Origin: an uncultured Verrucomicrobiae bacterium | GTDB taxonomy: Bacteria; Chlamydiota; Chlamydiia; Chlamydiales; Rhabdochlamydiaceae | DNA: 64,000 nucleotides | Reading direction: 5' to 3' | Assembly: GCA_963731265.1 (NCBI GenBank) | Contig: CAVSUE010000001.1 | Span: forward strand, 1,120,001 to 1,184,000 | In this document: positions 58,659 through 64,000 of the stretch, in pieces | Layout of the letters: the number at the start of each line of letters is the position of its first letter | How positions within the stretch are numbered: the first letter of the stretch is position 1 | Program-made: the position numbers and the translations under genes | The notes under the pieces: generated by a model | The model's database searches: none | Told to the model about the DNA's origin: nothing | What the model saw: the letters and a program-made list of their open reading frames with translations, nothing else

Positions 58659-59963
58659 ATGACGCAGATCACAACAGTTCATTCAACGAACTCTGCGTCC
58701 ATTATACCGGAGGATGCACCCATTTTGCAGATGCCTTTGGATATAGTCAGCCAAATATTCACCCACTCGAGCGGCCAAGAAATCGGAAGAAGTGCTCGAG
58801 TTTGCAGACAATGGCATCAGATGGTGAATGATTGCGATTGGAGCTTGCTCTTCTCTCATCATTTTCCAACGTTTGACTCTAGCGCCATTCAGAATTGCAA
58901 GGAGGCTTACCAAGCCCAATTCAAACCTAATTCAAACTTTACAAATGGGGTGTATGCTTCCTACACGCTTCAAGGCCATAAGGACGCGGTTCTCTGTCTT
59001 GGCTTTGCTAAAGGAAAGCTCATTTCAGGCTCTGACGACAACACCATCAAAATCTGGGATTTAGAAACGGGAGCCTGCACACAAACCCTTCAAGGCCATA
59101 ACGACTCGGTTTTCTGCGTTACCTTTGCTCAAGGAAAGCTCATTTCAGGCTCTCGTGACGACACGATCAAAATCTGGGATTTAGAGACGCGCGCCTGCAC
59201 ACAAACCCTTCAAGGCCATGACGACTCGGTTTGCTGCGTTGCCTTCGCTCAAGGAAAGCTCATTTCAGGCTCTGAGGACAGCACCATCAAAATCTGGGAT
59301 TTAGAAACGGGAGCCTGCACACAAACCCTTCAAGGCCATAACGACTCGGTTTTCTGCGTTACCTTTGCTCAAGGAAAGCTCATTTCAGGCTCTCGTGACG
59401 ACACGATCAAAATCTGGGATTTAGAGACCGGCGCCTGCACACAAACCCTTCGAGGCCACCGGAACACGGTTTGCTGCGTTGCCTTCGCTCAAGGAAAGCT
59501 CATTTCAGGCTCTGCTGACAACACCATCAAAATCTGGGATTTAGAAACGGGCACCTGCACACAAACCCTTCAAGAACTTAAGAGCTCGATTCTCTCCCTT
59601 GCCTTTGCTCAAGGAAAACTCATTTCAGGCTCTCGTGACAACACCATCAAAATCTGGGATTTAGAGACGGGCGACTGTACACAAACCTTTCAAGGCAATG
59701 ATGACAAGGTTAACTCCCTTGCCTTTGCTCAAGGAAAACTCATTTCAGGATCTGATGACTACTCCATCAAAATCTGGGATTTTATAGCGGGTCACCCCAC
59801 GGTCTTTCAAGAGATTGAGGAACTGTTAAAACAGGAAAATCCACAAGTGGTTGAGGATGCCCTTGAACGGTTTTCAAGAATGCCAAGAACAGCAAAAAAT
59901 GGGATGTATAGAAAGCTCTTTAGATCGCTGCCAGTGCCTATGTCCACCAATGGGGAATTTTGA
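58659..59963 (+). CDS. F-box / WD40 (7 repeats) protein, copy 1
   Basis: MPLDIVSQIF..RVCRQW F-box; 7 x 40-aa GH..ISGSxDxTIKIWD. Confidence 0.93.
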   Translation: MTQITTVHSTNSASIIPEDAPILQMPLDIVSQIFTHSSGQEIGRSARVCRQWHQMVNDCDWSLLFSHHFPTFDSSAIQNCKEAYQAQFKPNSNFTNGVYASYTLQGHKDAVLCLGFAKGKLISGSDDNTIKIWDLETGACTQTLQGHNDSVFCVTFAQGKLISGSRDDTIKIWDLETRACTQTLQGHDDSVCCVAFAQGKLISGSEDSTIKIWDLETGACTQTLQGHNDSVFCVTFAQGKLISGSRDDTIKIWDLETGACTQTLRGHRNTVCCVAFAQGKLISGSADNTIKIWDLETGTCTQTLQELKSSILSLAFAQGKLISGSRDNTIKIWDLETGDCTQTFQGNDDKVNSLAFAQGKLISGSDDYSIKIWDFIAGHPTVFQEIEELLKQENPQVVEDALERFSRMPRTAKNGMYRKLFRSLPVPMSTNGEF

Positions 59964-60138
59964 AGACGTGAAACCCTCTTCGATCTCGAGGAGTACACCA
60001 CTTATCGGCGCTCTCCGAATCTCAACCGAAAAATCTCTTTCAAATGGGAGAATAGAAGTTGGAAACCCAGAAGACGTGTAAGTGTAAAGATAAACACAAT
60101 TAAATTAATTAATAAGAAATAAAACACAGGAAAAAATT

Positions 60139-61449
60139 ATGACGCAGATTACAACAACTCATTCAACAAACTCTTCTGCGATTATACCGCAGGATGCACC
60201 CATTTTGCAGATGCCTTTGGATATAGTCAGCCAAATATTCACCCACTCGAGCGGCCAAGAAATCGGAAGAAGTGCTCGAGTTTGCAGACAATGGCATCAG
60301 ATGGTGAATGATTGCGATTGGCGCTTACTCTTCTCTCATCATTTTCCAACGATTGACTCGAGCGCCATTCAGAATTTCAAGGATACTTACCAAGGATTAT
60401 CCAAATTTAAATCAAACTTTCCAAACGGAGTGTATGCTTCCCATACTCTTCGAGACCATGAGGACGGGGTTCGATCAGTTATCTTTGATCAAGGAAAGCT
60501 CATTTCAGGCTCTGACGACAACACCATCAAAATCTGGGATTTAGAGACGCGCACCTGCACACAAACCCTTCAAGGCCATGAGAACGGGGTTTGCTGCGTT
60601 GCCTTCGCTGAAGGAAAGCTCATTTCAGGCTCTGCTGACGACACCATCAAAATCTGGGATTTAGAAACGGGAGCCTGCAGACAAACCTTTCAAGGCCATG
60701 AGAACACGGTTCTCAGCGTTGCCTTTGCTCAAGGAAAGCTCATTTCGGGCTCTTATGACGACACCATCAAAATCTGGGATTTAGAAACGCGCGGCTGTAC
60801 ACTAACCCTTCAAGGCCATGAGGACGGGGTTTGCTGCGTTGCCTTTGCTCAAGGAAAGCTCATTTCAGGCTCTGCTGACAACACCATCAAAATCTGGGAT
60901 TTAGAGACGGGCGACTGCACACAAACCCTTCAAGGCCATGAGGACTCGGTTCTCTGTCTTGTCTTTGCTCAAGGAAAGCTCATTTCAGGATCTAATGACT
61001 ACACCATCAAAATCTGGAATTTAGAAACGGGAGCCTGCACACAAACCCTTGAAGGCCATGAGGGCTCGGTTTGCTGCCTTGAGTTTGCTCAAGGAAAGCT
61101 CATTTCAGGCTCTGCTGACAACACCATCAAAATCTGGGATTTAGAGACGGGCGACTGCACACAAACCCTTCAAGGCCATGAGGACGGGGTTTGCTGCGTT
61201 GCCTTTGCTCAAGGAAAGCTCATTTCAGGATCTAATGACAACTCCATCAGAATCTGGGATTTTACAGCGGATCACCCCACGGTCTTTCAAGAGATCGAGG
61301 AATTGTTAAAAAACGAAAATCCAAACGTGGTTGAAGATGCCCTTGAACGGTTTTCAAGAATGCCACGAGCAGCAAAAAATGCGATGTATGGAAAGCTGGG
61401 TAGATTGCTGCTAGATCGCATGCCTATGTCCATCAATGGGGAATTTTGA
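60139..61449 (+). CDS. F-box / WD40 (7 repeats) protein, copy 2
   Basis: Same architecture as copy 1. Confidence 0.93.
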   Translation: MTQITTTHSTNSSAIIPQDAPILQMPLDIVSQIFTHSSGQEIGRSARVCRQWHQMVNDCDWRLLFSHHFPTIDSSAIQNFKDTYQGLSKFKSNFPNGVYASHTLRDHEDGVRSVIFDQGKLISGSDDNTIKIWDLETRTCTQTLQGHENGVCCVAFAEGKLISGSADDTIKIWDLETGACRQTFQGHENTVLSVAFAQGKLISGSYDDTIKIWDLETRGCTLTLQGHEDGVCCVAFAQGKLISGSADNTIKIWDLETGDCTQTLQGHEDSVLCLVFAQGKLISGSNDYTIKIWNLETGACTQTLEGHEGSVCCLEFAQGKLISGSADNTIKIWDLETGDCTQTLQGHEDGVCCVAFAQGKLISGSNDNSIRIWDFTADHPTVFQEIEELLKNENPNVVEDALERFSRMPRAAKNAMYGKLGRLLLDRMPMSINGEF

Positions 61450-62828: not shown

Positions 62829-62896
62829 AGGCGTGAAACACTCTTGGATCGGCCCGGTCAATTAATTAAAAAAATAATAAAACACAGAAAAAAATT

Positions 62897-64000
62897 ATGA
62901 CGCAAATTACAACCACTCATTTAACAAACTCTGCGTCCATTATACCGGAGGATGCATCCATTTTGCAGATGCCCGTGGATATACTCGGCCAAATATTCAT
63001 CCACTCGAATGGGCAGGAAATCGGAAGAAGTGCTCAAGTTTGCAGTCAATGGCATCAGATGGTGAATGATTGCGATTGGCGCTTACTCTTCTCCCATCAT
63101 TTTCCAACGTTTGACTCTAGCGCCATTCAGAATTGCCAGTATACTTACCAAGCACTATATTCAAACTTCACAAACGGGGTATATGCTTCCCATACGCTTC
63201 AAGGCCATGAGGACTCGGTTCTCTGTCTTGTCTTTGCTCAAGGAAAGCTCATTTCTGGCTCTTGTGACTACACCATCAAAATCTGGGATTTAGAAACGGG
63301 CGCCTGCACACAAACCCTTGAAGGCCATGAGGGCTCGGTTTACTGCCTTGAGTTCGCTCAAGGAAAACTTATTTCAGGCTGTTATGACGACACCATCAAA
63401 ATCTGGGATTTAGAAACGGGCGCCTGCACACAAACCCTTGAAGGGCATAAGCACTCGGTTTGCTGTCTTCTCTTTGCTCAAGGAAAACTCTTTTCAGGGT
63501 CTTATGACGACACCATCAAAATCTGGGATTTAGAAACGGGCGCCTGCACACAAACCCTTCAAGGCCATGAGCAGGAGGTTCTCTCTCTTCTCTTTGCTCA
63601 AGGAAAGCTCATTTCAGGCTCTGCTGACAACACCATCAAAATCTGGAATTTAGAAACGGGCGCCTGCACACAAACCCTTGAAGGGCATAAGCACTCGGTT
63701 TTCTGTCTTCTCTTTGCTCAAAGAAAACTCTTTTCAGGCTCTGCTGACAACACCATCAAGATCTGGGATTTAGAGACGGGCGACTGCACACAAACCCTTG
63801 AAGGCCATGAGAGCGAGGTTCGCTCTCTTCTCTTTGCTCAAGGAAAGCTCGTTTCAGGCTCTGCTGACAACACCATCAAGATCTGGGATTTAGAGACGGG
63901 CGACTGCACACAAACCATTCAAGACCATGAGGATGAGGCTAGGGACGAAGTTAACTCCGTTGTCTTTGCTCAAGGAAAGCTGATTTCAGGATCTAATGAA
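62897..64000 (+). CDS. F-box / WD40 protein, copy 4 (runs off window)
   Basis: MTQITTTHLTNSAS..MPVDILGQIF..QVCSQW followed by WD40 units; absent from ORF track because no stop is reached. Confidence 0.9.
   Translation, partial: MTQITTTHLTNSASIIPEDASILQMPVDILGQIFIHSNGQEIGRSAQVCSQWHQMVNDCDWRLLFSHHFPTFDSSAIQNCQYTYQALYSNFTNGVYASHTLQGHEDSVLCLVFAQGKLISGSCDYTIKIWDLETGACTQTLEGHEGSVYCLEFAQGKLISGCYDDTIKIWDLETGACTQTLEGHKHSVCCLLFAQGKLFSGSYDDTIKIWDLETGACTQTLQGHEQEVLSLLFAQGKLISGSADNTIKIWNLETGACTQTLEGHKHSVFCLLFAQRKLFSGSADNTIKIWDLETGDCTQTLEGHESEVRSLLFAQGKLVSGSADNTIKIWDLETGDCTQTIQDHEDEARDEVNSVVFAQGKLISGSNE

Follow-up and report, generated by a model that had tools for sequence, protein, structure and literature searches.

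A tandem array of F-box/WD40 genes with exchanged blades and variable loop codons in a bacterial genome

F-box effectors are a known route by which intracellular bacteria seize host ubiquitination, and one may ask how families of such effectors gain new targets. This question is raised in concrete form by one stretch of DNA (the window: 64,000 nucleotides (nt), positions 1120001-1184000 of contig C1) from a bacterial genome held in two contigs (2.00 Mb and 0.34 Mb, with GC contents of 0.46 and 0.45). From position 58659 onward the window carries a tandem array of genes that join an F-box to seven WD40 repeats, the blades of a propeller. How do the blades of these genes come to differ, by what route are they exchanged, and what might the differences serve? 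The explanation that we regard as probable is that the genes encode secreted mimics of the substrate receptors of Skp1-cullin-F-box (SCF) ubiquitin ligases, which diversify by duplication, by length-preserving gene conversion and by selection on the top face of the propeller.

When the sequence is read beyond the end of the window, the array consists of six tandem genes on the same strand, each of 434-449 residues and separated by spacers of 32-175 nt, and it overruns the window by 2.97 kb. A preliminary description of this DNA had given the extent of the array as 58659..64000 and the number of genes as four; the start stands, whereas the gene number has been corrected to six. The genes and their repeats are as follows, in window positions unless the locus L001 is named:

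58659..59963, + strand: gene 1, 434 residues; leader, F-box at residues 23-59, linker, blades in the order A-B-C-B'-D-E-F, three-helix tail
60139..61449, + strand: gene 2, 436 residues; architecture as in gene 1, with a blade set of its own
61518..62828, + strand: gene 3, 436 residues; a mosaic of gene-2-like 5' and 3' ends and a gene-1-like propeller, blades in the order A-B-C'-C-(B/D)-E-F
62897..64000, + strand, open at the window end: gene 4, 449 residues in full, with its stop at window-equivalent position 64246; 5' end gene-5-like, 4-residue insertion in blade 7
L001 8279-9589 and 9658-10968, same strand, outside the window: genes 5 and 6
58968..59782, + strand: 120-nt repeat array of gene 1 (Tandem Repeats Finder: 6.8 copies, 85% matches, no indels)
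60448-61262, 61827-62641 and 63197-63931, + strand: 120-nt repeat arrays of genes 2, 3 and 4 (Tandem Repeats Finder)

Each gene has the same layout, that is, a leader, an F-box, seven WD40 blades of 40 residues and a short helical tail. The Pfam WD40 model finds seven stretches in every complete protein, and blade anchors number seven in all six genes at a spacing of exactly 40 residues, the exception being one 44-residue step in gene 4. Tandem Repeats Finder returns one 120-nt array per window gene (6.1-6.8 copies, 85-89% matches, 0% indels). The N-termini of all four window genes score above the cut-offs of both the F-box-like model PF12937 (34.8-38.7 bits, cut-off 24.3) and the F-box model PF00646 (26.5-31.7 bits, cut-off 20.5). 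An AlphaFold model built from an alignment of 25 sequences (mean predicted local distance difference test score, pLDDT, 81) contains a propeller of 28 strands in seven blades (pLDDT >90) and a disordered N-terminus (residues 1-15, pLDDT <50). Its best full-length matches in Foldseek are the Skp1-bound receptors beta-TrCP, FBXW11, Fbw7 and Cdc4 (expectation value, E, 2e-30 to 3e-27 over 374-452 columns), in alignments that reach into the F-box part of the model; WDR5 and LIS1 match with template modelling scores (TMt) of 0.81-0.87. A phmmer comparison with Fbw7 gives an E of 6e-77. The architecture of an F-box followed by a seven-blade propeller, as first read from the translations, is therefore upheld by Pfam, model and Foldseek, and the seven blades claimed for each complete gene are true of all six array genes. 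For the C-terminal helical module, searches of Pfam and of the protein atlas returned no significant family and no usable match, respectively.

The next question is where the blades vary. The 42 units of 120 nt were cut in one register, and entropy was calculated over 41 of them, blade 7 of gene 4 being excluded because its 4-residue insertion shifts the register. Across these 41 blades the entropy peaks at unit positions 6, 7, 8, 10, 24 and 26, with lesser peaks at 3, 12, 13 and 37; positions 24, 26, 8, 6 and 10 each hold 6-10 different residues, and T1, K18, I28, I30 and W31 are invariant. In pairwise Nei-Gojobori comparisons, the ten most variable codons have a proportion of nonsynonymous differences (pN) of 0.437 and of synonymous differences (pS) of 0.128, their choice by pN being circular for pN but not for pS, and the remaining thirty codons have a pN of 0.095 and a pS of 0.215. 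Blades of one gene are more alike in DNA (identity 0.77-0.84) than in protein (0.60-0.73). DSSP assignments on the model put strands a, b, c and d at unit positions 9-15, 18-23, 27-32 and 38-43, respectively. Positions 6-8 thus belong to the d-a loop, and the b-c loop contains positions 24 and 26. The top face of a propeller with the established WD40 topology is made up of these two loops. The c-d turn, which holds position 37, is on the opposite side. The preliminary description had proposed that variation is concentrated around the motifs GH and SGSxDx on a nearly constant scaffold, which the entropy and the pN and pS values confirm, and that the hypervariable codons occupy the top face, which agrees with the entropy peaks and with DSSP on the model.

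Variation limited to a few codons of an otherwise constant repeat is also what would suit targeted hypermutation, in which a diversity-generating retroelement writes the variable codons. However, the differences occur at all three codon positions, and the reverse transcriptase model PF00078 has no match in this genome (96% complete), although the control search matched in 3 genomes. The array was rejected as a target of such an element because the genome shows no reverse transcriptase, and the probability of this explanation is practically negligible.

Selection was assessed on trees of the distinct blades of each of two subfamilies with different scaffolds, named type I (to which the window array belongs) and type II, by counting changes from parsimony ancestors and not by a likelihood model. 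The tested positions 8, 10, 24 and 26, which flank a conserved V and a conserved D, had been fixed beforehand from the case of the fungal WD repeats discussed below. For the 85 type I blades, these positions show 211.5 nonsynonymous and 23.5 synonymous changes, with a ratio of the two rates (omega) of 2.30 and a binomial p of 1e-5. In both subfamilies, the four positions contrast strongly with all other codons (Fisher p 8e-9 and 4e-13). Transition bias was ignored in the omega test, which, by reasoning, makes the test conservative. The comparison of nonsynonymous and synonymous change per codon proposed in the preliminary description has thus given an excess of nonsynonymous change in type I, but not a significant one in type II (values below). 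What these counts demonstrate is that nonsynonymous change accumulates at the codons of the predicted top-face loops.

How blades move between genes can be followed most closely in genes 1 and 3. Blade 2 of gene 1 is identical to blade 2 of gene 3, and blade 3 of gene 1 to blade 4 of gene 3 (0 differences in both cases); blade 4 of gene 1 is 2 nt apart from blade 2 of the same gene; and blade 5 of gene 3 is a B/D hybrid, with a 5' part like blade 4 and a 3' part like blade 5 of gene 1. The blade orders initially read from these two copies, including the hybrid, are therefore confirmed by comparison of the units. The two genes share blades with 0-3 differences in a different order, and when they are aligned in register they differ at 81 sites (78 in a site-by-site list). 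With an offset of +120 (one unit), the two genes match exactly over 228 nt:

62145..62372, + strand: shifted tract in gene 3 (gene nt 628-855), a product of out-of-register, length-preserving copying
59166..59393, + strand: counterpart of this tract in gene 1 (gene nt 508-735), which runs from blade 2 (tail) to blade 4 (head); the likely type of source

A single copy of the blade-2-tail/blade-4-head stretch onto the blade-3-tail/blade-5-head stretch would convert the order A-B-C-B-D-E-F into A-B-C-C-(B/D)-E-F with length unchanged. Since no blade with a D head is present in gene 3, gene 1 presumably retains the older order. Gene 3 is also a mosaic on a larger scale: at the sites that differ between genes 1 and 2, it is gene-2-like to column 309, gene-1-like between columns 319 and 1271 except in the shifted tract (a central run of at least 53 informative sites) and gene-2-like again from 1318 to the end. 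Gene 4, for its part, tracks gene 5 across the first ~260 alignment columns. Throughout the genome, 20 pairs of blades differ at no more than 4 of 120 nt, of which six are neighbours in the same gene, one is a non-neighbour pair inside gene 1, nine stand at equal positions in two paralogue pairs, and four are shifted by one or two positions in the same two paralogue pairs, one of which is on each contig. The earlier proposal that blade-sized DNA is exchanged within and between paralogues is thus supported by the 228-nt tract, by the gene 3 mosaic and by the near-identical pairs. At the level of DNA comparison, this evidence demonstrates that the sequences change by duplication and by length-preserving conversion, including out-of-register copies.

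Near-identical repeats may also mislead an assembler, and the blade orders and mosaics of genes 1 and 3 could in principle be chimeras made during assembly. Exact repeats of up to 332 nt are shared between the genes, and the public reads come from relatives, not from this strain: in the 20 runs listed, none of which is an RNA run, at most 0.12 of the sampled words are found. Contigs of related strains, taken from four of these short-read runs, are fragmented over the F-box/WD40 part, in pieces of 100-410 nt that are 90-99% alike, and the same four runs yield only two single-run bins, of depth ~2, on the flanking synthase gene. Nevertheless, each of the six genes has an open frame without a frameshift and encodes exactly seven blades; a comparable shift occurs in a second paralogue pair on the other contig; and the genome lies in two contigs despite 32 such genes, which suggests that long reads were used. 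Nor does any of these 32 genes have more than seven blades. An assembly artefact is accordingly very unlikely.

The 32 genes just mentioned are the open reading frames (ORFs) of the whole genome with at least two blade motifs. The order of leader, F-box, linker and blades is common to nearly all of them, and members of ~680 residues carry seven blades followed by a 295-residue helical domain, of which the window genes retain only the first 60 residues. Fourteen blades had at one point been considered for these 680-residue paralogues, a count rejected in favour of seven blades plus the helical domain. By a stricter pattern, exactly seven blades at regular spacing are found in 22 of the 32 genes, the ten others being divergent, broken or in part not recognised by this pattern. 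In scaffold DNA, identity is 0.842 within a gene and 0.810 between genes of the same type in one genome, compared with 0.676 between types I and II and 0.652 between genomes, so that homogenisation works within subfamilies, atop a lineage-specific expansion. One member is broken (G000 C1:1516657-1517660), its F-box being encoded by one frame (174 residues) and its blades by another (247 residues). In addition to the WD40 family, there is a second F-box-like family of ~320-380 residues with a common C-terminal part, two members of which are adjacent:

G000 C1:282345-283322, 1352824-1355118, 1749835-1750824 and 1985448-1986452; C2:333550-334512: second F-box-like family

Whether such proteins could reach a host depends on the organism. 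Its genome has one FHIPEP gene, in a run of SctU, SctV, SctW, a 143-residue ORF and malQ, with ychF a few genes upstream; SctU, SctV, SctW, malQ and ychF all score above NCBIfam cut-offs, as do SctN and SctJ. This order is presumably that of the CT087-CT092 region of Chlamydia trachomatis. Flagellin was not found in the genome, and neither were VirB4 and VipB, which belong to other export routes. Five matches to nucleotide transporters exceed the cut-off; one of these (G000 C1:1261831-1263237) has an internal TAG and is possibly a pseudogene. Relatives that carry the family are recorded as Verrucomicrobia or Verrucomicrobiae bacteria and as Candidatus Acheromyda pituitae, which NCBI taxonomy places in Chlamydiota, Parachlamydiales, Rhabdochlamydiaceae. 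The evidence points to an obligate intracellular, chlamydia-like bacterium, and the bacterial, host-associated setting assumed from the outset is borne out by the injectisome genes and the nucleotide transporters.

Within this context, a cellular role of the proteins as secreted adaptors of the host SCF is a well-founded prediction. The disordered N-terminus would act as the signal for type III secretion; once inside the host cytosol, the protein would dock with its F-box on Skp1 of the host SCF ubiquitin ligase; and the top face of the seven-blade propeller would select a host protein for ubiquitination. The family grows through tandem duplication, and gene conversion within and between paralogues keeps the blades alike. 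Some of these conversions are out-of-register copies, which overwrite a neighbouring blade, so that the count stays at seven. The outcome is a panel of predicted receptors with a common scaffold and differing binding faces.

It is also conceivable that the proteins are not effectors, but WD40 scaffolds that act inside the bacterium, with F-box-like helices that bind a bacterial partner. According to the main text of Hu et al. (2017, PMC5587647), free-living bacteria commonly have WD40 proteins whose repeats are highly similar, and 2ymu, a PDB entry deposited under the name WD-40 repeat protein, is the best match by sequence, ahead of designed symmetric propellers. However, the F-box-like Pfam model has 52 matches at E <=0.01 in this genome, 42 of them above the cut-off, compared with no F-box match above the cut-off in 14 well-known control genomes. 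Within the class, 69 of 151 genomes have an F-box at E <=1e-5, but none of the 27 genomes of the family with the smallest genomes (~1.1 Mb) does. The whole-protein fold, moreover, aligns with Skp1-bound receptors, and the organism encodes an injectisome and nucleotide transporters. A purely bacterial role is thus quite improbable in comparison with that of a secreted adaptor.

The age of the array and the pace of its change can be estimated from related genomes. Of 41 related genomes, 17 are matched by a query made of leader, F-box and linker. These include 13 of 18 genomes of the same genus (1-28 matches each), one of six from the family's other genera and two of 16 from the order's other families. 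Elsewhere in the genus, other species have a uniform scaffold that is specific to each gene or cluster. Further afield, one chlamydial family (L098, G088) has a protein with two F-boxes and uniform WD repeats of its own, of ~43 residues, and another (L097, G151) has three tandem F-box genes with divergent WD40 blades. The upstream neighbour of the array is the following gene:

55344..58643, + strand: glycogen/starch synthase, 1099 residues, with its stop 15 nt before gene 1

In all three congeners examined, the synthase orthologue has as its immediate downstream neighbours the orthologues of the genes found 3' of the array here, with no F-box/WD40 gene in between. A 272-residue ORF directly 3' of the array (L001 11178-11996) is likewise without a counterpart at the syntenic locus of the three congeners. 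The array and the adjoining ORF are therefore a recent gain at this site; by the comparison of sequences, the array is a young, lineage-specific gain with swapping of blades among its genes. As for the synthase itself, its catalytic domains occupy residues 534-1004, behind an N-terminal extension of ~530 residues without a family match, and congeners have one close orthologue and several remoter paralogues of >1000 residues. An orthologue pair shared with the closest genome (677 residues in both, gapless) differs by 22 nonsynonymous and 9 synonymous codon changes, and of the 22, five are in regular blades, where three of these five affect the variable positions 10, 24 and 37. On this evidence, change is real but not explosive.

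The same pair bears on two further explanations. One is that the ~ninety interchangeable blades of the thirteen type I genes form a standing cassette library, whose members act as donors for length-preserving conversions, often out of register, that rewrite the top face of secreted SCF adaptors. If so, new host-target specificities would arise within populations, and the cassette logic of antigenic variation would have been turned to the choice of victim, as a bacterial counterpart of the repeat shuffling of fungal NOD-like receptors (NLRs). We consider this unlikely, and the dedicated generator of specificities envisaged in the preliminary description is not borne out, as the orthologue pair keeps the same blade order, with its 22 amino acid changes in 677. 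The other explanation is plain birth and death under relaxed constraint, with recent tandem duplicates, tolerant loops and incidental conversions that play no role in specificity. The lineage-specific nature of the array, the stability of the orthologue pair, the broken family member and the lack of significance in type II are compatible with it, as is the fact that type I and type II scaffolds are no closer to each other than blades of different genomes are. However, the type I omega was obtained at positions chosen in advance from the fungal case, the mosaic and the shifted tract of gene 3 go beyond what duplication and point mutation alone would produce, and overwriting of a neighbouring blade recurs in six genes. 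Birth and death without a role in specificity therefore seems rather unlikely.

Several observations weigh against receptor mimics under top-face selection, the explanation that we prefer. The 87 type II blades give an omega of 1.31 at the four positions (p 0.058), a value that is compatible with neutral evolution. All omega values derive from parsimony counts on trees of 120-nt units that recombine, and recombination together with such short units makes a blade tree unreliable. The helices of the F-box part of the model (residues 27-36, 39-43 and 50-58) have a pLDDT of ~50, i.e., low confidence, and a single-sequence search of solved structures with the F-box alone gives weak matches (E 0.12-0.9). 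The secretin model has matches only below the cut-off in the genome. The stable orthologue pair, in which the blade order is kept, indicates that turnover is not fast, and the public reads, as noted, belong to relatives of this strain.

Elsewhere in the window there is what is possibly a second expanded effector family. On the - strand, positions 10743-19679 hold seven paralogues in tandem (358-370 residues; 66-75% identity to the first of them), which lie in an island of GC 0.38; they have an invariant HPYPDGQGRTD motif and score 20.5-22.6 bits against Pfam Fic/DOC, slightly below the cut-off of 24. The 509-residue ORF at 49644-51173 may encode a transposon nuclease of the TnpB type, since it contains a TNB domain of the Cas12f1-like kind (E 2.8e-12). 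A scan for promoter-like sites (7 vs. 9.1 expected) and terminator-like sites (5 vs. 10.5 expected) was uninformative.

What is gained from this locus becomes apparent in comparison with known systems. The array proteins are like beta-TrCP, FBXW11, Fbw7 and Cdc4 in domain order and fold, although Cdc4 has eight blades. They differ from these eukaryotic F-box/WD40 receptors in that identity is only 22-34%, that eukaryotic blades are not mutually alike, and that a C-terminal helical module without a known family is conserved here. Differences between the paralogues are almost confined to ~six residues per blade, so that these proteins constitute a natural panel for mapping how the top face of a WD40 propeller chooses its substrate. 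Cassette-based antigenic variation in bacteria relies on gene conversion from silent donor cassettes, which hides a surface from immunity. The array would resemble such systems in the non-reciprocal copying of short variant segments into expressed genes with conserved flanks; however, all copies here are intact genes, and the varied surface would select a host target.

Among bacteria, the closest counterpart is the chlamydial F-box superfamily (NEX1, NEX2 and related families) described by Domman et al. (2014, PMC4209131), which is likewise made of large, lineage-specific families in tandem clusters of environmental chlamydiae, with an N-terminal F-box and a C-terminal repeat domain, and whose members were proposed to be type III effectors that hijack host ubiquitination. 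In those Parachlamydiaceae families, such as NEX and PEX, the F-box is joined to leucine-rich repeats (LRR) and tetratricopeptide repeats (TPR), whereas the repeats here are WD40; the main text of that study does not contain the term "WD40" and has "WD-40" once, in a general list. Type III signals of such families worked in a heterologous assay (PMC4209131). According to the same main text, their global dN/dS values (the ratio of nonsynonymous to synonymous rates) are 0.29-0.63, without support for positive selection or convincing recombination. In the present array, conversion tracts are clear, and omega exceeds 1 at the loop codons of one subfamily, so that both processes, neither of which that large study reported in the part considered, are visible in the sequence. 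In the full-text literature covered (titles and beginnings of abstracts of main articles in journals open without subscription), no description of a chlamydial F-box/WD40 expansion was found, and the main text of a study of Rhabdochlamydiaceae contains neither "F-box" nor "WD40".

The highly repetitive prokaryotic WD40 proteins of Hu et al. (2017, PMC5587647) share with the array a high internal identity and diversity at predicted hotspot sites, the mean blade identity found here straddling the threshold of 0.7 used in that paper. Their partners are mostly kinase or STAND-type domains, and not an F-box, a term absent from the main text of that paper.

The likeness in repeat evolution is greatest with the fungal HNWD/NWD genes het-e and het-d, whose highly similar WD repeats are also exchanged within and between paralogues. 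According to the portion of Paoletti et al. (2007, PMC1805685) drawn on here, the repeats of ten genes all undergo concerted evolution, with positive selection on codons 7, 9, 25 and 27 around the purified codons 8 and 26. The pairs correspond: 7 and 9 around 8, and 25 and 27 around 26, in the fungi; 8 and 10 around V9, and 24 and 26 around D25, here. The fungal repeats have 42 residues, vary in number and follow a NACHT or HET domain in receptors of self and non-self, whereas those of the array have 40 residues, always number seven and follow an F-box in a bacterium; repeat-induced point mutation (RIP) has no part in the array. Of the fungal-style shuffling proposed earlier, the geometry and the exchange are thus found here, but the variable repeat number is not, as the blade count is fixed. 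Selection and recombination in the form known from fungal immune-receptor repeats point to a convergent solution, by which a binding surface can change fast while the scaffold stays fixed. The combination is a WD40 variant of two known things, the chlamydial F-box expansions and the fungal WD repeats of the het-e type.

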